DNA from: a virus
Taxonomy: Duplodnaviria; Heunggongvirae; Uroviricota; Caudoviricetes
IMG/VR virus record: IMGVR_UViG_3300049044_000033
Coordinates: 94,796-158,795 of that record
DNA: 64,000 bases
Reading direction: 5' to 3' (one strand)
This document shows positions 22,854 to 61,754 of this stretch, piece after piece. The notes under the pieces are model-generated. The model searched no databases and was not told the DNA's origin. It worked only from the letters and a program-made list of their open reading frames with translations. The translations under genes and the position numbers were made by a program. How positions within the stretch are numbered: position 1 is the first letter of the stretch; each line of letters starts with the position of its first letter.

Positions 22854-23060
22854 TCAATCGGATTTAGATTCCCGATGAACGTTAACTAGAACGATCAGAG
22901 CGAACATCAAAGATGCAAAACCGAGGCCAATTTGCAAATTAGGAAAGGGACAAGTTGCAACCACGAAAGACCAGATTCCCGAAACCACTGCGACCTGTCG
23001 AAACTCCCAACGGGTCATGTCTTCTAGTAGCTTGCGCTTTTTGGGTTCTTTTAGATCCAT
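22854..23060 (-). CDS. Small two-TM protein
   Basis: Hydrophobic segments. Confidence 0.65.
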   Translation of the reverse strand: MDLKEPKKRKLLEDMTRWEFRQVAVVSGIWSFVVATCPFPNLQIGLGFASLMFALIVLVNVHRESKSD

Positions 23061-23431
23061 GGATTGAGTCCCTTCAAAATGTCTTCACGGTCGTCAACAT
23101 CAATCGGCCCAATACCAAGAGCCGTAATCATCGGCCTAGGGAAGACTGTCTTCCCTGCATCCTTAATCAACGCCGTGCCACACTTGTCTTTGTAGAGACG
23201 GGACAATTGATGTAGAGTCTCCTCATTGGCAATTAGGCAGATCTTAGGCGTACCTGATCCGAGGATATAGCGGACAGCCAATTCAATGGCTTTGAAGTTG
23301 AGGCGAAGGAATGGAGAGACGAGAGCGCCGCAGAACGCATGGCCAATCTGGGCTCCCATTTTGCCACGATTGCCGTTAGAAGCCTTTACCGCTTCCTCAC
23401 TCACAACACAGTAGAGCCTAATATCTTTCAT
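23051..23431 (-). CDS. pth2: Peptidyl-tRNA hydrolase, Pth2 type
   Basis: GKMGAQIGHA, PKICL, IKDAGKT, TALGIGP. Confidence 0.88.
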   Translation of the reverse strand: MKDIRLYCVVSEEAVKASNGNRGKMGAQIGHAFCGALVSPFLRLNFKAIELAVRYILGSGTPKICLIANEETLHQLSRLYKDKCGTALIKDAGKTVFPRPMITALGIGPIDVDDREDILKGLNPWI

Positions 23432-29270: not shown

Positions 29271-30848
29271 TTAACAACTTTCCTCGACTGTATATTGGCG
29301 CAATAGACCAATGGTGTTTTCCAAACCATAGGCTTCGACGAATGCGCCGAACCTCGGACCATCGCTCGAACCAAGTAGACATTCATAAAGTGCCTGGAAC
29401 CAGGAGCGTAGAGGAGAAAAGTTATGTGCCTTTCCTACTTCATAGACTTGGAACTGGAAATGCTCAGCTGACATATTGGGCACCATGCCCTCTAGTCGAT
29501 TAGCTAGGTCTTCAAACGCAGCTCGCTCTTGTTCCGTTGGTGCTCGACAATCGCGATCATACAATCCACAATCAGCAGCATAGCGACAAACCCGCTCAGC
29601 TAGTGAATTAAGGATGACCTTTTCACTGTGAACTAGTCCCCGACTAGTTGCTAGATAGGCCAACAAGGTCTTGGCATCCCGACTCTGACTCACAATAGCT
29701 AGGTTGAGAAGGAGGCCAAAGTTTACATTTTCGACCGTTCGCCAGCCAGTATAGGTTGCCCTCCAGAACCAACTTGCGTCGTTGGGAGAAGGCTCACCTT
29801 GCTCCTTCAACTTGATCGCCGTATCCTCATTTTGAGGAACAAGGTTAATATGGAGAGGCTTGGCAGCCTTGGGGTTCTGGAACAGGAAGGTCATCAGAGA
29901 TTCCTTGGAACCATAGGTCAGCCACTCCTCCATCGAGAAGCCATTGCCTACAGTCTTGCTGATCTTCTTGCCCTCTGCGTCAAGGAAGAGCTCGTAGGTC
30001 ATTCCAGCCGGAGGGGTCCCGCCAAGAATGCGACAAATCTTTGCTGACGCCTTTACGGAATCGATAAGGTCCTTGCCTGACATTTCATAGTCCACATCAA
30101 AGTGGACCCAGCGCATTGCCCAGTCGACCTTCCACTGAAGCTTGGTCTGGCCATCGTGGATGCTGAGTGCAGCGCCATCGAGGGAGTCCAAAACGATATA
30201 GCCAGGATGGTCATCCAGCTTAACGCCACAATCAATGACCTTGCTACCAATAACCGGCATGAAGGGGCTATAGGCGGCACGACGCTCCTCACCTAAAGTG
30301 GGCAGCATTACAGCCTGAATCTTATCGTAATTGTCCCACACGCGATCCAGCATAGCATTAAACTTGCCGGCCTTGTAATACTCAGTTGAGCTCACAAAGG
30401 AAACACGCGAACGTTCAGGGGATGAGCCGACTTGACTACCATCATAGTCCTTCAGGATATCATCCACAAATTCCAAGAGCTTCATGTTATTGTCGGATGC
30501 GAATGTGCCAGAACTCAAAGGGTCTGGACTGGGCACAGATGACAGCGGCTTACCTAAGTGGTCATTCATCCACTCGGGCAATCCTTCAGGGACCTTCCGC
30601 ATTGCGTCATAGTCGTCAGAGAACAAGATCAGACGAGTCTTGTAGGCAGATTCCGTAAGGGTATCAAATGCCTTCATAACCCAAAGGGTGCGGATCACTT
30701 CTGCGAACGTGCCAATATGCGGAGGACCGGAGGGTCCATATCCTGTCTCGAAGGTCACAACGTCGCCAGGCTTCTTCCCCTTGCGCTCGATATGAGCCAA
30801 TAGGGTTCGGGCTTCCTGAAAGGGCCACGATCGAGCCGGTTCTGTCAC
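29271..30848 (-). CDS. lysK: Class I lysyl-tRNA synthetase (alphaproteobacterial type)
   Basis: SWPFQEAR, ETGYGPSG.PHIGT, FSDD.D..RKVP, KLQWKVDWAMRW, DYEMSGKDL, KISK..GNG, WF.ALYE.LLG...GPRFG. Confidence 0.95.
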   Translation of the reverse strand: MTEPARSWPFQEARTLLAHIERKGKKPGDVVTFETGYGPSGPPHIGTFAEVIRTLWVMKAFDTLTESAYKTRLILFSDDYDAMRKVPEGLPEWMNDHLGKPLSSVPSPDPLSSGTFASDNNMKLLEFVDDILKDYDGSQVGSSPERSRVSFVSSTEYYKAGKFNAMLDRVWDNYDKIQAVMLPTLGEERRAAYSPFMPVIGSKVIDCGVKLDDHPGYIVLDSLDGAALSIHDGQTKLQWKVDWAMRWVHFDVDYEMSGKDLIDSVKASAKICRILGGTPPAGMTYELFLDAEGKKISKTVGNGFSMEEWLTYGSKESLMTFLFQNPKAAKPLHINLVPQNEDTAIKLKEQGEPSPNDASWFWRATYTGWRTVENVNFGLLLNLAIVSQSRDAKTLLAYLATSRGLVHSEKVILNSLAERVCRYAADCGLYDRDCRAPTEQERAAFEDLANRLEGMVPNMSAEHFQFQVYEVGKAHNFSPLRSWFQALYECLLGSSDGPRFGAFVEAYGLENTIGLLRQYTVEESC

Positions 30849-41081: not shown

Positions 41082-41134
41082 TAGTCACCTTTTAATATTG
41101 ATTGCGTGTTGGCTCCTATGTATAACAAGGACAG

Positions 41135-41432
41135 TTAGAGAGCAAGTCCGAAATGGCATACTCCCTAATTAGACTAGCATCCCTGCTCAGTGGGCCCTTT
41201 CAATTAGGGTGACAAATTGAACGTTGTCTGGCCATCGTTAAAGCCCAGGGCTTAATGGGATTGAGCTTATCAATCCTGGGTGTGGGGATCACCGGATTCC
41301 CCTAGCACGCTCATTGCTATAAGGGGCGAAGTTTAGTCACCTTCTAAAACGTGACTGCGGGGCAATCCGCCGAAGGCAACGTACCTTCTAGAACCGGGTA
41401 ATAGTTTAGTCAGCTATTACCCGGTTCGCTTT
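41135..41432 (+). ncRNA. Candidate ~300-nt structured ncRNA
   Basis: TTGATT/TATAAC promoter at ~41098-41126, consecutive hairpins, no long ORF, ends at a 14-bp stem plus U-tract. Confidence 0.5.
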
Positions 41433-41433
41433 T
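41391..41433 (+). terminator. Terminator between convergent units
   Basis: GAACCGGGTAATAG/CTATTACCCGGTTC followed by GCTTTT. Confidence 0.75.
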
Positions 41434-41608
41434 ATCGCATTGCGTTCATTGTTGCGTTTGTGAGTATAGCAGCGGTTTGATCCATGGTATCTCGTCTTAC
41501 AGCTTGGTTACCAGTATCTATCTTATGAAGTTCGTTCTTGATGAACTTGAAGATACCTATTGCTCGAGAAGCTGAAGCTTCGTCAGTTTCACTGATAATA
41601 TTTGACAT
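41432..41608 (-). CDS. Hypothetical protein (58 aa, not in ORF track)
   Basis: MSNIISETDEASASRAIGIFKFIKNELHKIDTGNQAVRRDTMDQTAAILTNATMNAMR. Confidence 0.45.
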   Translation of the reverse strand: MSNIISETDEASASRAIGIFKFIKNELHKIDTGNQAVRRDTMDQTAAILTNATMNAMR

Positions 41609-41629
41609 AAATTTCTCATAAATAGAAGT

Positions 41630-41721
41630 GACAGAGACGCCTAATTGGTATGGGCGCTTTCACACATCGGGCAGGCGTATCCAGTGAAAGAGTGTAGAGG
41701 GTTCAAATCCCTTCCCTGTCA
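41630..41721 (+). tRNA. tRNA-like RNA with non-canonical, expanded anticodon loop (undetermined/pseudo)
   Basis: Acceptor GACAGAG/CCCTGTC-A, D arm GCCT-AATTGGTAT-GGGC, stem CTTTC/GAAAG with 24-nt loop, T arm GAGGG-TTCAAAT-CCCTT. Confidence 0.65.
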
Positions 41722-56939: not shown

Positions 56940-57584
56940 TTAGAGCAGCGACCTAAAGGTTAGGCTAATCCGTGCCTTGCTCTCAAAGCCAGCTTTGGGA
57001 ATGCGATGCTGATATGTAGACTGAAAGCCAGCTGGCATCAAACACAGGCTACCATGTTCTAAGGGCTGGTCGATGATTTCCCCATAAGTAGGCTTGCCGT
57101 CGACTTCGCCTAACTTCTCACGAAACTGAATGCTGCGAGGCTTATCAACACCGGGTCCACCATACAGCGTCACAACCGCGATGGGTTTTGAGTGATCAAT
57201 TCCTGGATCATCATCTTCGTGCCAGCCCAACCAATCGCGCGCATCTTCGTAACCATTGAGGAAACAACCCTCGAAGAACGTAGAGACGCGAGGATCCTGG
57301 TTCAGTGATTCACTAACTGTTAATATCTCGCGAGTGATCGGCTGGGCGTCGTAGGTCCGAGTACCAGCACCGCGGCCGTAGGTATAGGACCGGTCATACA
57401 CGTTCGTCCAGTATTCCCGACGGGGAGCATCAGGTCGACGTTCCCAGTTGAGTTCGTTCCACAACGTGACAAACATTTCGTCGGCCGTCAGGGCAGGGGT
57501 TCCAAGGTTCCTATCTGAGAGGTGGCGCTTGGATTCCACAAACCTGTTGTGGTTCACAAAGTCGGGAATATAGACAATCGACAT
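56940..57584 (-). CDS. alkB: AlkB-family 2OG-Fe(II) dioxygenase (ALKBH2/3-like)
   Basis: CFLNGYED..D.LGWHEDD, IAVVTL, L.HGSL.LM.AGFQ..YQHRIPK, RISLTFR. Confidence 0.9.
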   Translation of the reverse strand: MSIVYIPDFVNHNRFVESKRHLSDRNLGTPALTADEMFVTLWNELNWERRPDAPRREYWTNVYDRSYTYGRGAGTRTYDAQPITREILTVSESLNQDPRVSTFFEGCFLNGYEDARDWLGWHEDDDPGIDHSKPIAVVTLYGGPGVDKPRSIQFREKLGEVDGKPTYGEIIDQPLEHGSLCLMPAGFQSTYQHRIPKAGFESKARISLTFRSLL

Positions 57585-57632
57585 TTTGAATCCTTTCACG
57601 CCTTTGTAACAGAAAAGGATCCTATGTCAACC

Positions 57633-58394
57633 TCAGAGCATCTTAAGCTTTTCCATCATCAGCACTTGCTTGATGTCGTCGCTGAGGAGAAGGACTTGGT
57701 CGTCCATAACGCCAGGAATCTTAGCTTCTTCCTTGGCGCCAATATGCTTGATCTTAACCGTTCGAGCATCACTAATGTGGGTGATCTTACCCACAATCAA
57801 GTGGCCATATCTCTGACCAACGATGACTAGATCCCCGGCCGTTACATCTCGACCGTAACGATCCTTGATAGAGATGCTTGGCTTGACCTTAGAAGGCTTA
57901 CCCTTAACGAGAACTTCGCCACCAGTATATCCGATGAGCAATACGGGACGAGCTGTCTTCATAGACGAAGAACTGGGGTTCCATTCCAAAACAACTTTGC
58001 CGTCAACTGAAGCTTCGCACATTCCATGACCGCCCCAGCGACTAGAGCTCAGTAGGATATTGCCATAAATGTGTGCCGAACCGCCCTTATTGTTCCAGCC
58101 TTTGTGCGTAACAATTTTGACCTTGGAGGGAGGGTTATTATCGTCATCACTGTGGATAATATTGCCGGGCTTCTTTGTGATTCGAGCAATTGTGCCCGCT
58201 TTAGCGCCTGCTGTTAGCTTGACATAGATTGGTCCAGTTTCGAAAAGATCGCGAATCTCTTGGAGGAGTTCTCGAGCTTTCTCAGCTTTCTCCATCATGG
58301 ATTCATAACTACCTGAGGTATCCTCATAGTAGAATGAAGTGTCATTATACTGATATCCGCTAGGGAACAGTTCGGTCCAAAGAATCTCTTTCAT
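57633..58394 (-). CDS. Hypothetical protein; paralog of 20314..21063
   Basis: KLTAGAKAGTI; DRYGRDVTAGDLVIV. Confidence 0.75.
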   Translation of the reverse strand: MKEILWTELFPSGYQYNDTSFYYEDTSGSYESMMEKAEKARELLQEIRDLFETGPIYVKLTAGAKAGTIARITKKPGNIIHSDDDNNPPSKVKIVTHKGWNNKGGSAHIYGNILLSSSRWGGHGMCEASVDGKVVLEWNPSSSSMKTARPVLLIGYTGGEVLVKGKPSKVKPSISIKDRYGRDVTAGDLVIVGQRYGHLIVGKITHISDARTVKIKHIGAKEEAKIPGVMDDQVLLLSDDIKQVLMMEKLKML

Positions 58395-58437
58395 ACCTCA
58401 TTGCTAAGAGGGTAGAAAGAGAGTTGTCATTATTCTT

Positions 58438-58743
58438 TTAGGATAATAGAGCTTGGTCCGCTAGCTCTTTCCAAACTGGCTTGAGCTCTTCGATGATTGC
58501 GTCGATCTGATATTGCTGAACCTCACTGGGAACGTTGATGCTCATAGCAGCCTTCAACTCTTCAGCCATGATCTCAAGCATGTAGAAAGGCCAGTTCTTC
58601 TCAATCCATGTTGGAACCACATGAGTGACCATGCCTACCACGATAGCGTTGACGGCTTCCTCAGGTGTGAGAAACTTCTGAGCTTTTTGCTCAGGGGTGA
58701 GGGGTTTTTCCGCAAGCGCGGGAAATTGTATAACCTTTGCCAT
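58438..58743 (-). CDS. Hypothetical protein
   Basis: MAKVIQFP N-terminus; CTAAATA just upstream. Confidence 0.7.
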   Translation of the reverse strand: MAKVIQFPALAEKPLTPEQKAQKFLTPEEAVNAIVVGMVTHVVPTWIEKNWPFYMLEIMAEELKAAMSINVPSEVQQYQIDAIIEELKPVWKELADQALLS

Positions 58744-58786
58744 CCAATATTTAGTGGCAAAGTGCGCAGTTAAGCGTTTTTAGGGA

Positions 58787-58863
58787 TGGTGGACACAGTG
58801 GGATTCGAACCCACGACGCAGGGTGTTAGAGACCCCCGCTCTTGACCGCTGAGCTATGCGTCC
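58787..58863 (-). tRNA. Amber suppressor tRNA (anticodon CUA)
   Basis: GGACGCA-TA-GCTC-AGCGGTCAA-GAGC-G-GGGGT-CTCTAAC-ACCCT-GCGTC-GTGGG-TTCGAAT-CCCAC-TGTGTCC-A-CCA; anticodon at 58827-58829; own TTGACA/TATAAAT promoter. Confidence 0.92.
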
Positions 58864-58905
58864 ATGTTCTCATTTATAAGGCAGAGAACGTACCTTGTCA
58901 ACACC

Positions 58906-59448
58906 TTATCGGTTGTATCCGCCGCGGTTAGGGAAGGCAAGACCTGGGATCATGATGATTGTCTTATCATACCAATCGTTTACTGTCTTGAGAAGCTCGC
59001 CCTCTGCCCCTATGACTTCGTCCAAGTATTCAGTCATAAGCCTGTTAGGGCACATTGCCGGACTGAGTAGCTTGACCTTCTGCAGGGCATCTGCGGGGCT
59101 CATACCATGTAGAACCAAGATAGCCATCGCAATAGCAGTGGATCGGCTCTTACCAGCAGAGCAGTGAACGAGAACCTTTGACTCATCAGTGAGTTCCCAG
59201 CTCTTCACTTCGTCAATGATCTCTTGCATGACCTTCAGGGAGGGAGGCGTCAGGTCAGCATATTCCTCCGGATCATCTGCCTCAACATCATGGAAATTGT
59301 AGATCCCATGATTGTTATGCTGGCGATCAATATAAGTACCGGGCCAATTAGGGCCAGCATCGTTGATCACGCTGATGATGTGAGTAGGCCAATCCTGAGC
59401 GATCAGGGTCTTGGCTTTGTGGATTCCCATTACTTTGATTTCAAACAT
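58906..59448 (-). CDS. Protein-tyrosine/dual-specificity phosphatase
   Basis: LVHCSAGKSRS (CX5R), FHDV, PN. Confidence 0.9.
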   Translation of the reverse strand: MFEIKVMGIHKAKTLIAQDWPTHIISVINDAGPNWPGTYIDRQHNNHGIYNFHDVEADDPEEYADLTPPSLKVMQEIIDEVKSWELTDESKVLVHCSAGKSRSTAIAMAILVLHGMSPADALQKVKLLSPAMCPNRLMTEYLDEVIGAEGELLKTVNDWYDKTIIMIPGLAFPNRGGYNR

Positions 59449-59455
59449 ACGATCT

Positions 59456-59480
59456 ATAGGGTGAGTTGCCCCACCCTATT
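59456..59480 (-). terminator. Stem-loop
   Basis: ATAGGGTG/CACCCTAT. Confidence 0.5.
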
Positions 59481-59483
59481 TCC

Positions 59484-59858
59484 TTAACGGTAGTTAGCCG
59501 GACCCATGGCGCAAACCATGTTGGCCTTCACTAGAGCCTGAAAAGTTACGTCCCAGTCCTCATTGGTCCTCGTCCAAGCATAATCGAGGATTTGCTTAGG
59601 GATAACATACACGCCGGTGCCTGGAGCCGCGATAGCGTAGAACAGATCATTGTCAGTCCAAGAAACTTCACAGCCACTGATGGTCACATTCATGACCTTG
59701 TTGTCAGCTGTTGAGATTGGCACAATGCCGTTTACCATGTGACCAACGCGGATGAGGGTCATCTTCACATGGGAGGGTGGAGTAACGGGAGCCGCAAGTG
59801 CAGGGGTAGCAACAAGGGCAGTGAGCGCAGCTAGTGCGCCGATGAAAAACTTCTTCAT
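59484..59858 (-). CDS. Secreted protein
   Basis: Start at MKKFFIG after GAGGAGG; signal ending ALA-A. Confidence 0.75.
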   Translation of the reverse strand: MKKFFIGALAALTALVATPALAAPVTPPSHVKMTLIRVGHMVNGIVPISTADNKVMNVTISGCEVSWTDNDLFYAIAAPGTGVYVIPKQILDYAWTRTNEDWDVTFQALVKANMVCAMGPANYR

Positions 59859-59934
59859 GGATACCTCCTCGACGCCTAGAGGAATATCAAAGCGTCCATG
59901 TATCCACAATACAGGAATTACAACCCAGGAATCA

Positions 59935-60315
59935 TTATTCTTGTTCGATTAGTTCGCCATCTTCTCCGAGTTTGAAAATGCGAACGTTAGCACCAGGTTG
60001 GGCCATGATCCCCTGGACTTCATTGAAGAAGTTTTGGAGGAACTCTTCCGAAAGCTTATGAGAATTATCTTCCCAATAAGTTCCAGGTGCCGGCGTTACG
60101 GGACGAACCCATCCCGTTGAGTCAGTTACATGCTTCCTCAAAGCAGTGCGCCAATCTGACTGTTTTGTCTGAAGACTGTTATAGACGTCTTCCATCGACA
60201 TCTCGGTATGCTCATTGGCCAATTCAGCATCATGAGCACGACGGGCTTCTTCATATTCAGGGAGGAGCAGGACGTCGCCGATGATTTCGAATACGGGAAG
60301 ATTTCTGCGAACCAT
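59935..60315 (-). CDS. Hypothetical protein
   Basis: Start at MVRRNL after AGGAGG. Confidence 0.7.
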   Translation of the reverse strand: MVRRNLPVFEIIGDVLLLPEYEEARRAHDAELANEHTEMSMEDVYNSLQTKQSDWRTALRKHVTDSTGWVRPVTPAPGTYWEDNSHKLSEEFLQNFFNEVQGIMAQPGANVRIFKLGEDGELIEQE

Positions 60316-60387
60316 ATTTGACCTCCTGCTGTTGTTACCTATAAGTAACAGAACGAGAGATCGAGTCAACCACATTTCGGTGAACCT

Positions 60388-60801
60388 ATGATCCTCTATA
60401 TTATGTCGGGCCTTCCTGGTTCCGGTAAGTCAACCACAGCTAATGAGATAGTTGAGAATACAGGTGCTATCCTCGTGAGTAGGGATGAACTTCGTGTGAG
60501 CTATCGTAACTTACCTGATGAAAGCCATCTCTCCCAAGCCCTAGGAAATAATGTAAAGTTCTTCCTTGAGCGTGGTTATGACGTTGTGGTCGATTCGTGG
60601 AATCTTGAGGTATGGGACGAGAAACTTTGGACTGAGATGGCTCGTAGATTTGGTGCTACATTGTCTTGGAAGCACATTGATACTGATGTTGAGACTTGTG
60701 TGGCTAGAGACGCAAAACGCCCTCAACCGATTGGGGCTGAGAGCGTTAGAAATGCGGCAGAACGTTACAGCGAACGTCTAAAGGTATTGGAGGAGGGCTA
60801 G
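60388..60801 (+). CDS. P-loop kinase, T4 polynucleotide-kinase-like (AAA_33) (TAG stop)
   Basis: GLPGSGKST, SRDELR, VVVDS.N, C..R...R. Confidence 0.85.
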   Translation: MILYIMSGLPGSGKSTTANEIVENTGAILVSRDELRVSYRNLPDESHLSQALGNNVKFFLERGYDVVVDSWNLEVWDEKLWTEMARRFGATLSWKHIDTDVETCVARDAKRPQPIGAESVRNAAERYSERLKVLEEG

Positions 60802-60879
60802 GTACTCGAAACCTAAGGGGCTACAAACCCCTCCATCTGTTTTCAAGGCAGCGCCGGCGCCCTGGCCGGTCAACCCTCC
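60788..60879 (-). tRNA. tRNA-Ser(UGA), atypical (long D stem, U73)
   Basis: GGAGGGT/GCCCTCC-T-CCA acceptor, loop CTTGAAA, long variable arm GGGG..CCCC, T arm TAGGT-TTCGAGT-ACCTA. Confidence 0.8.
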
Positions 60880-60912
60880 ATGTAGTCTATTTAGCAAGTT
60901 GTAGACTAGAAA

Positions 60913-61098
60913 TCAACTTGCTTGTCGACGTTCTTTTCGAATCTCGCGACTATTAATCACAGCCACGATACCCTTGTTGAGTGTCTCTGTGCAATCGCGA
61001 TCAATACGCATAAGGCGCTTGAGACGACGATTATCCATTGGCACGCCGTCATAGACTGCGGCATACATTTCCGAAAGAAGCTTATCTAGCAATGCCAA
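60913..61098 (-). CDS. Hypothetical protein
   Basis: Stop overlaps -35 of the tRNA promoter. Confidence 0.55.
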   Translation of the reverse strand: MALLDKLLSEMYAAVYDGVPMDNRRLKRLMRIDRDCTETLNKGIVAVINSREIRKERRQAS

Positions 61099-61110
61099 TG
61101 GAAGTCTCGC

Positions 61111-61194
61111 TTAGAAGATGAAAGCACCAGCGACGAAAGAAATCACAGCAGTGATAACGGGATGCTCGTGAACAAAACGCTGAACCTGATCCAT
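61111..61194 (-). CDS. 27-aa tail-anchor-like peptide (ElaB/YqjD C-terminus-like; not in ORF track)
   Basis: MDQVQRFVHEHPVITAVISFVAGAFIF; AAGGAG RBS. Confidence 0.55.
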   Translation of the reverse strand: MDQVQRFVHEHPVITAVISFVAGAFIF

Positions 61195-61247
61195 AAAAAC
61201 TCCTTTGTTGCCTGTCTGCTATTAGGTTAGTCTGACCTACTTGTCAA

Positions 61248-61754
61248 CTACCTTTGTTCCTTCATTACCTCACAGGCATGAAGATAGATTGCGAGACGTT
61301 GTGGATCTAGCTCTGCTTCTGCTAATTCGCGCGAAAAGAAGAAGGGCTGAAGACATTCGTCATTGACCTCATATGGGTCAATCCAATCCACAAAGCCTGC
61401 GTAGAACTGCTGGTAGGAAACCGGATGAGGATATTTCCAATCCTCTGGGACCTCACCCTCACTGGTCATTCTCAGATATCCAATGGGAACGACCATTGTC
61501 ACGTGACAACCCGTTTCCTCGAGACATTCCCGCTTGGCTGCTTGCTCAAGCGTCTCACCGACTTCTACGTGCCCTCCGGGGACCTCTAAGCCCCTCCTTG
61601 AGTTGTTGGCAAACACAACCCGCTTACCTAAGACAAAGGGCATGAGAAACGCTGTAGAGGTCAACTCCAAGGGAGCAGGGCTACTATCAGCGATGAACTC
61701 TACCTGATTAGGGAGAGGGAGATACTTAACGTCTGTAATGGTATGAAGAATCAT
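61248..61754 (-). CDS. NUDIX hydrolase (TAG stop)
   Basis: PGGHVEVGETLEQAAKRECLEETG Nudix box. Confidence 0.92.
   Translation of the reverse strand: MILHTITDVKYLPLPNQVEFIADSSPAPLELTSTAFLMPFVLGKRVVFANNSRRGLEVPGGHVEVGETLEQAAKRECLEETGCHVTMVVPIGYLRMTSEGEVPEDWKYPHPVSYQQFYAGFVDWIDPYEVNDECLQPFFFSRELAEAELDPQRLAIYLHACEVMKEQR

Follow-up and report, generated by a model that had tools for sequence, protein, structure and literature searches.

A conserved tRNA with anticodon CUA, probably of lysine type, in a giant phage that uses the standard genetic code

The window analysed here, a stretch of 64,000 nucleotides (bases 94796-158795 of the 462,455-bp virus record IMGVR_UViG_3300049044_000033, which has direct terminal repeats and is rated complete), contains a tRNA gene with the anticodon CUA (window 58787-58863 = genome 153582-153658, minus strand) that is, with a probability slightly above one half (about 0.55), a working amber-suppressor tRNA which selection maintains in a soil-type giant phage of standard genetic code. 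Judged by its sequence, this tRNA would be transcribed by the host RNA polymerase from a promoter of its own and might head an operon; it would be derived from tRNA-Lys(CUU) by a change of U36 to A, with the host-like lysine acceptor stem and the discriminator base A73 retained; and it would most likely be charged with lysine, in an alphaproteobacterial host by a class I lysyl-tRNA synthetase (LysRS1) of either the host or the phage. It would be the A73 member of a set of two tRNAs, of which the G73 partner has a lysine-like body and, because its acceptor stem and discriminator base are different, probably carries another amino acid. Such a set would read a few deliberately placed UAG codons, the clear one being codon 8 of pth2 (peptidyl-tRNA hydrolase 2), and would not serve genome-wide recoding; the tRNA of the window might read the pth2 gate, back up its partner, or act on UAG stops of the host or the phage.

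Structure, promoter and conservation of the tRNA

ARAGORN identifies 62 tRNA genes in the genome, two of them within the window. Three of the 62 have the anticodon CUA: the A73-type gene of the window (tRNA 1, also matched by Rfam RF00005), a gene inside a large tRNA array outside the window (tRNA 2, genome 185829-185902, minus strand, Rfam score 51 bits), and a G73-type gene (tRNA 3, genome 394833-394908). An earlier prediction, made from the letters of the window, had described tRNA 1 as a canonical tRNA(CUA) with A73 and an encoded CCA, and ARAGORN, Rfam and a reading of the sequence agree with this description. The tRNA is 77 nt long and is matched over its full length by RF00005 (63.8 bits, E 1.6e-11, model positions 1-71, gathering score 29). 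It has an acceptor stem of 7 bp (GGACGCA/UGUGUCC, with a single G5-U68 pair), a D arm (GCUC/GAGC) with GG (G18 G19) in the loop, an anticodon stem of 5 bp (GGGGU/ACCCU) closing the loop C-U-CUA-A-C (U33, A37), a variable loop of 5 nt, a T arm (GUGGG-UUCGAAU-CCCAC), A73 and an encoded CCA. CUA occupies positions 34-36 in the sole canonical register, and all the features of a canonical elongator tRNA (acceptor stem, D arm, 7-nt anticodon loop and T loop of the TPsiC type) are present. The name tRNA-Pyl, which ARAGORN assigns from the anticodon alone, was rejected: the CUA anticodon is the only trait that tRNA 1 shares with tRNA-Pyl, and the compact traits of the latter (6-bp anticodon stem, 3-nt variable loop, small D loop lacking GG) are absent.

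Upstream of tRNA 1 is a sigma-70-like promoter (window 58873-58901, minus strand), composed of TTGACA (58901-58896), a 17-nt spacer and TATAAA (58878-58873), which ends 9 nt 5' of the mature tRNA end. The tRNA does, as had been proposed, appear to have a promoter of its own, with the caveat that the -10 box ends in A and lacks the usual final T, on account of which it is not listed by a consensus scanner. A relaxed promoter pattern has only nine matches in the whole genome, two of them directly upstream of tRNA(CUA) genes. As no terminator was found after tRNA 1, the promoter may also drive the downstream genes.

Relatives of the present phage (its genome is designated G000) were found through LysRS1, and include G001 (277 kb), G002 (417 kb), G003 (465 kb) and G004 (455 kb), among others. 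The ortholog of tRNA 1 in G003 is 90% identical and occupies the same place, between the gene of a 101-aa protein and a phosphatase gene; it differs, among other positions, by paired changes at three places in the stems (28-42, 30-40 and 50-64), and keeps both the loop CUCUAAC and A73-CCA. More diverged A73-type tRNAs(CUA) are found in G002 and in G001, where the copy is at the same locus, so that the order of 101-aa gene, tRNA and phosphatase gene is kept in both G003 and G001. G004 has a rearranged A73-type copy adjoining an AlkB-like gene. An alignment of seven tRNAs (orthologs and homologs) contains compensatory changes in 12 of 20 pairs, with UCUAA and A73-CCA invariant. The -35 box TTGACA stands at an equal distance from the tRNA in G000, G003, G001 and G002, and as TTGACT in G004, amid flanks that have diverged; a -35 box at a fixed distance is also found upstream of the second (G73) class of tRNA(CUA). 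Since the anticodon and its loop are kept in relatives while the stems covary, the gene is evidently under purifying selection, and an assembly error in the anticodon, which would have undone the original prediction, is ruled out by the syntenic CUA orthologs.

Other searches for relatives contributed little. When IMG/VR was searched for exact matches to the pattern of the anticodon arm, only chance matches inside genes turned up; neither megablast on phage sequences nor blastn on E. coli genomes returned a match; single-protein searches with the phosphatase gave none; and a helicase alignment search recovered only G003 and G001, plus two weak matches.

Stop-codon usage and the amber-gated pth2 gene

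The genome uses the standard code and is not recoded. When the coverage by open reading frames (ORFs) was compared under four genetic codes, ORFs of at least 100 aa covered 88% of the genome under code 11, and no 10-kb region of the whole genome gained specifically when TAG was read as sense. The stops of the 664 genes found by a simple codon-usage gene caller are TAA in 369 cases, TGA in 243 and TAG in 52 (7.8%); in the window TAG ends 11 of 117 called genes, which fits the original count of TAG as the rarest stop (12 among about 150 genes). Judged against cellular genomes, a share of 7.8% is not a depletion beyond the usual. A second stop lies within five codons downstream in 33% of TAG-terminated genes, compared with 33% and 32% of those ending in TAA and TGA; after a terminal TAG, the next in-frame stop is again TAG in 15 of the 52 genes; and the in-frame extensions 3' of TAG are neither longer nor more coding-like than those after TAA or TGA.

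Regulated read-through into phage fusion proteins, one of the roles first suggested, found no instance genome-wide. Four TAG stops are followed by a long extension in the same frame, and in each case a start codon lies within eight codons of the stop, so that these are evidently neighbouring genes. A 96-aa ORF followed by TAG and a 434-aa ORF (window 51537) was likewise rejected as a fusion: a ribosome-binding site of its own is present, and G003 has TAA at this place. Evaluation of the coding potential on both sides of every stop, together with comparison to the complete relative G003, identified no conserved in-frame TAG in a coding region apart from the pth2 gate described below. The release factor for which a search had been proposed was not found: PF00472 has no match in the 462-kb genome, and the same search matched 10 of 14 control genomes. 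The pattern of code 15 recoding, many in-frame TAG codons in real genes and a poor coding density under code 11, is absent, and a single early gate is all that was found.

This gate is in a pth2 gene outside the window (genome 391728-392186). The gene has an ATG with a ribosome-binding site and TAG at codon 8, after which 33 positively scoring codons that contain no start codon lead into the conserved N-terminus of Pth2. The TAG is kept at codon 8 in G003, G001 and G002, and the Pth2 ortholog (74% identical) that Phosso, a cultured phage of Sinorhizobium, encodes at about 176.5 kb of PV764938.1 begins with ATG AAG TAT TAG, with the TAG at codon 4, behind an AGGAG ribosome-binding site. By these sequence features, the gated pth2 is the only clear candidate for a UAG target in the genome. 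In all five genomes in which both were located (G000-G003 and Phosso), the G73-type tRNA is 3-5 kb from the gated pth2. The gate is thus conserved in the clade and tied to the G73-type tRNA, unlike tRNA 1, beside which no gated gene was found, either in the window or in an extra 1 kb of G003, which has an intact 326-aa ORF. The phage also encodes an ungated Pth2-like paralog of 126 aa (window 23051-23431, minus strand, identified by tblastn and translation) with an ordinary ATG start, and so has one gated and one free copy of Pth2.

Amino-acid identity, LysRS1 and the A73/G73 pair

Among the tRNAs of the phage, the closest paralog of tRNA 1 by far is tRNA-Lys(CUU) (alignment score 36); all others score 20 or less. 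Because the phage LysRS1 is of alphaproteobacterial type, tRNA 1 was also compared with five alphaproteobacterial genomes, picked from the groups of the best LysRS1 matches, and its full-length matches, including both acceptor strands, were to tRNA-Lys(CUU) only. The tRNA-Lys(CUU) of Sphingomonas (acceptor stem GGACGCA/UGCGUCC, A73) is identical to tRNA 1 at 13 of 14 stem bases and A73. Together, the paralog and the Sphingomonas match make a suppressor of lysine type the most likely reading of tRNA 1. The lysine origin suggested by the original prediction is thereby upheld, and lysine charging, the other half of that suggestion, is an expectation from sequence.

Lysine identity in E. coli centres on U35 and A73, several amber suppressors with U35 insert lysine, and a change of A73 to G73 turns a lysine amber suppressor into one that partly inserts glutamine (PMC9976931). 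U36 is a determinant for LysRS of both classes, and the LysRS-1 of Borrelia, the sole one studied, leans on U36 more than does the class II enzyme (PMC9976931). In tRNA 1, A73 and U35 are present, and both are invariant in the A73 class; position 36 is A, as is inherent to the anticodon CUA. The laboratory tRNA-Lys(CUA) suppressors of E. coli (McClain 1990 and Tamura 1992, as cited in PMC9976931) likewise combine a lysine body or acceptor stem with U35, A73 and CUA. They insert lysine and shift toward glutamine when A73 becomes G73, which mirrors the split within the phage pair, but these rules apply to class II LysRS, and the likely host of the phage has only the class I enzyme.

The LysRS1 that the original prediction had noticed was confirmed (window 29271-30848, minus strand; PF01921 284.6 bits, NF001968 537 bits), and its best cellular matches, 45-46% identical, are from Sphingomonadales, Rhodospirillales and Caulobacteraceae. 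The host of the phage is probably an alphaproteobacterium, in which case any lysylation of tRNA 1 would proceed via a LysRS1, be it the host's or the phage's. When the phage enzymes are aligned with 72 cellular LysRS1 proteins, 146 columns are at least 95% conserved. The phage LysRS1 keeps 138 of these, among them 23 of 24 in the C-terminal part (residues 344-525), which lies beyond the Pfam catalytic match and presumably contains the anticodon-binding domain; nothing in these conserved columns hints at a remodelled anticodon site. The only match to LysRS1 among cultured phages is in Halogranum tailed virus 1, and Phosso, XacN1 and CBB lack the enzyme. The genome has three further synthetase genes, for a bacterial-type GluRS, for CysRS and for a class II core (271 aa) that adjoins tRNA 3 and is GlyRS-like, not PylS-like; no class II synthetase of the Lys/Asp/Asn type was found in the phage genome. 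The phage has two tRNA-Lys(CUU) genes (genome 188801-188875 and 189621-189707), one with an irregular D stem (GCUC...GCAGC) and the other of 87 nt with an insertion 3' of the anticodon arm, and no tRNA-Lys(UUU).

The second class of tRNA(CUA) is represented by tRNA 3, which has G73, an acceptor stem unlike that of tRNA 1, and a body (positions 7-61) that is 87-89% identical to host-type tRNA-Lys(CUU). A match of its 5' end to tRNA-Val proved to be a shifted alignment and not a common acceptor stem. tRNA 1 and tRNA 3 are 241 kb apart, each behind its own promoter. Each complete or near-complete relative has exactly one A73-type and one G73-type tRNA(CUA): G003 at 441571 (A73) and 222209 (G73), G001 as supB (A73) and supA (G73), G002 as y (A73) and x (G73), and G004 with both classes present. 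Among cultured phages, the closest matches to tRNA 1 are tRNAs(CUA) of the jumbo phages Phosso, XacN1, Xoo-sp13, CBB and Milchi (80-88% identical over 55-72 nt). Phosso has one tRNA of each class, and XacN1 has a tandem pair (AP018399.1 36047-36205) with identical D, anticodon and T arms and with the acceptor strands GGCCCGU (A73) and GCUUUCG (G73). The XacN1 pair argues that two identities may be wanted; the A73/G73 pairing as a whole comes from about four independent lineages, and its statistics are modest.

Several minor observations concern these tRNAs. The XacN1 pair looks as if only the identity-bearing end had been swapped, and some 1 kb downstream of it ARAGORN calls a tmRNA-like gene of permuted type (tag ANANTFDYALAA). 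Synteny between XacN1 and the present phage, considered on account of flanking ORFs of similar sizes, was rejected, as the proteins are unrelated. In Phosso, the 1.3 kb directly after the A73-type tRNA(CUA) (PV764938.1 446807-448102) has no annotated gene, and no convincing ORF or gated frame was found in this stretch even with TAG read through. tRNA 2, which has A1-U72 and A73, is located between the tRNA-Met and the tRNA-Trp of the array and has a T arm that hardly differs from the T arm of the phage tRNA-Trp. ARAGORN found no tRNA(CUA) at the corresponding position of the G003 array, in which an odd "tRNA-???" adjoins tRNA-Trp.

A number of findings weigh against a functional lysine-type suppressor. 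The anticodon stem and the flanks of its loop are as Trp-like as they are Lys-like, in keeping with the original remark on the anticodon stem, and the best partial matches (positions 7-68) in two Sphingomonas genomes are to tRNA-Trp. The acceptor stem varies among orthologs (GGACGCA, GGCCGUU and GCAGGCG), with only G1-C72 and A73 constant, and so only in G000 and G003 does this stem match that of host tRNA-Lys. A host in which LysRS1 is the only LysRS may lysylate a tRNA(CUA) poorly, given the strong need of the one studied LysRS-1 for U36, and the host assignment itself comes solely from LysRS1 and tRNA likeness. The TAG-terminated genes of the phage show no adaptation in the form of backup stops, which fits weak suppression or none. 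Finally, no UAG target is near tRNA 1, the pth2 gate being 238 kb away and linked to the other tRNA class.

The Trp-like traits lend some weight to another amino acid (Trp, Gln or Glu by mischarging, or Leu), with the Lys-like acceptor stem incidental, which is an unlikely reading but one to be taken seriously. The anticodon arm (G30-C40, U31-A39, C32) and body resemble alphaproteobacterial tRNA-Trp, with best partial matches of 76-78%; CUA is one base from the anticodons CCA of Trp, CUG of Gln, CUC of Glu and CAA of Leu; the acceptor stems are variable among orthologs; and leucine tRNAs of the phage lack the long arm, six of the eight called by ARAGORN (genome 172991-188276) being only 74-78 nt and so without the long variable arm of bacterial leucine tRNAs. 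Bacterial tRNA-Trp, tRNA-Gln and tRNA-Glu, however, have G73, whereas A73 is invariant in the class of tRNA 1; matches that extend through both acceptor strands are exclusively to tRNA-Lys(CUU); and the phage tRNA-Lys(CUU) is the best paralog by a wide margin, the leucine tRNAs scoring far lower. If the amino acid is lysine, the phage LysRS1 could in principle have evolved to charge tRNA(CUA), so that the phage would bring both halves of amber decoding. This dedicated pairing, which had been part of the original prediction, is improbable. In its favour are the A73-type tRNA(CUA) in all of the near-complete LysRS1-bearing relatives G001-G004, the rarity of LysRS1 in cultured phages, and an acceptor stem in tRNA 1 that copies the tRNA-Lys of a LysRS1 host, the likely alphaproteobacterial hosts being users of LysRS1. 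The relatives were, however, picked by LysRS1, which biases this co-occurrence; the LysRS1 gene is 28 kb from tRNA 1 and not co-transcribed with it; two cognate tRNA-Lys(CUU) genes explain the enzyme; the presence of GluRS, CysRS and the GlyRS-like core makes LysRS1 nothing special; the enzyme keeps nearly all of the columns invariant in cellular enzymes and shows no sign of a changed anticodon site; Borrelia LysRS-1 relies on U36 (PMC9976931); and Phosso has both tRNA classes and a gated pth2 without LysRS1, which XacN1 and CBB lack as well. A dedicated pairing of LysRS1 with tRNA 1 is thus unproven, and it is not needed.

Other explanations dispense with a role in phage genes or with function altogether. 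That the suppressor is directed at the host, suppressing host UAG stops or overriding a UAG-dependent factor of the host or of a rival phage, has a small probability: the promoter is of the type used by host RNA polymerase, tRNA 1 has no UAG target near it, and two suppressors of different identity would make read-through robust, but no specific target is known, strong suppression would also hit the phage, which ends 52 genes in TAG with no backup stops, and the conserved pth2 gate of the phage offers a simpler purpose. An inactive relic or a decoy, for example a bait for a tRNA-targeting nuclease, would suit the missing nearby target and the G5-U68 pair, which departs from the host-like stem. 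Anticodon nucleases are known to target tRNA-Lys. A decoy for nucleases specific to tRNA-Lys would nevertheless be expected to keep the lysine anticodon, and a relic hardly agrees with the intact cloverleaf, the compensatory changes, the invariant anticodon loop and the promoter kept in relatives, so that this explanation is very unlikely. Equally little credence is given to an early stage of TAG recoding, raised by the original prediction, in which the suppressor is acquired before in-frame TAG codons accumulate. In the model of Borges et al. (10.1101/2021.08.26.457843), standard-code relatives of recoded phages do have acquired suppressor tRNAs, and TAG is the rarest stop of the present genome, but it is not unusually depleted; the G+C content (47.5%) is not low; the sole in-frame TAG is one early gate; and both tRNAs persist, unrecoded, in XacN1, in Phosso and in relatives as distant as G004 (LysRS1 49% identical), the standard-code relatives in which the arrangement is stable having LysRS1 proteins 49-66% identical.

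Lysine-type suppression kept by selection could be part of a larger arrangement, proposed here with little confidence: a two-key kit for amber decoding in giant phages of Proteobacteria, in which an A73 lysine-type tRNA(CUA) and a G73 tRNA(CUA) charged with something else, each with its own host-type promoter and each perhaps charged by an enzyme of the phage (the first by LysRS1, the second by the minimal GlyRS-like core), would act as a translational checkpoint. If so, the gated Pth2, and perhaps other targets, would report that the phage tRNAs are intact and charged, for instance in the face of host nucleases that attack tRNA-Lys.

Known systems and neighbouring genes

Orphan tRNAs(CUA) in jumbo phages of standard code were already published in 2018, for XacN1, without an explanation. 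The part of that paper used here (Yoshikawa et al. 2018, PMC5852040) describes two CUA suppressor tRNAs and an in silico read-through of 18 amber stops that revealed no target, and contains no mention of a split into A73 and G73. XacN1, CBB, Xoo-sp13, Milchi and Phosso are all jumbo phages of standard code with many tRNAs, including tRNAs(CUA) akin to tRNA 1. The present phage differs from XacN1 in being uncultured, in having no neighbour proteins in common with it, in having three tRNAs(CUA) with the two classes 241 kb apart, and in encoding LysRS1. Suppressor tRNAs are also found in recoded phages and in some of their standard-code relatives (Borges et al., 10.1101/2021.08.26.457843). The recoded phages (code 15, TAG = Gln; crAss-like, Lak, Garnet and other phages, and those with the Jade module) likewise bring a phage tRNA(CUA) into a standard-code host; unlike them, the present phage has no in-frame TAG in structural or lysis genes, no release factor, no synthetase or release factor beside tRNA 1, a suppressor that is probably of lysine and not glutamine identity, and a G+C content that is not low. 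The "code change module" of Jade type, in which a suppressor tRNA, a synthetase and a release factor sit together 5' of a recoded lysis cassette, is not found at tRNA 1, where LysRS1 is 28 kb off, a release factor is lacking and the neighbouring genes are in standard code.

The A73/G73 pairing and the host-like lysine acceptor stem are new relative to the XacN1 and Borges et al. papers. To the published orphans, this case adds a tRNA that is clearly under selection behind a conserved promoter of its own, resembles a host-type tRNA-Lys that has been converted, and is half of a recurring pair. The members of the pair differ in the part that is read by synthetases, the acceptor stem and discriminator base, which suggests that these phages need two ways, or two routes, of reading UAG. 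Taken with the gated pth2, the pair points to deliberate stop-codon read-through on a small scale and away from genome recoding. Natural suppressors that work beside an unchanged host code may interest engineers of the genetic code, and the cultured phage Phosso, which has the whole set, is a ready laboratory system.

The gene directly downstream of tRNA 1 (window 58438-58743, minus strand) encodes a 101-aa protein of no assigned function, which is 73% identical in G003 and 63% identical in G001 and in both lies at the same place beside the tRNA; it has no match in Pfam, NCBIfam or PHROG and no early in-frame TAG. Directly upstream of the promoter is a gene for a dual-specificity phosphatase-like protein of 180 aa (window 58906-59448, minus strand; PF00782, E 2e-10; phrog_32716), 82-87% identical in G003 and G001. 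Further neighbours are a 253-aa protein and a weak match to DUF2514, and all the neighbours are encoded in standard code. A stretch of about 640 bp elsewhere in the window (41085-41718) is devoid of any ORF of at least 60 aa, and neither ARAGORN nor Rfam reported a tRNA at 41630-41721.

Domain matches also identify an AlkB-like 2OG-Fe(II) oxygenase (window 56940-57599), the kinase domain of a polynucleotide kinase (window 60388-60801, plus strand) and a NUDIX protein (window 61248-61754). A tRNA-Ser(UGA) (window 60788-60879), on the strand opposite to the kinase gene, overlaps the 3' end of that gene. The region around tRNA 1 (window 56940-61754) therefore has the appearance of a cluster of genes for nucleic-acid repair and processing. 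In Pseudomonas phage Milchi, the suppressor tRNA adjoins a gene annotated as RNA ligase.

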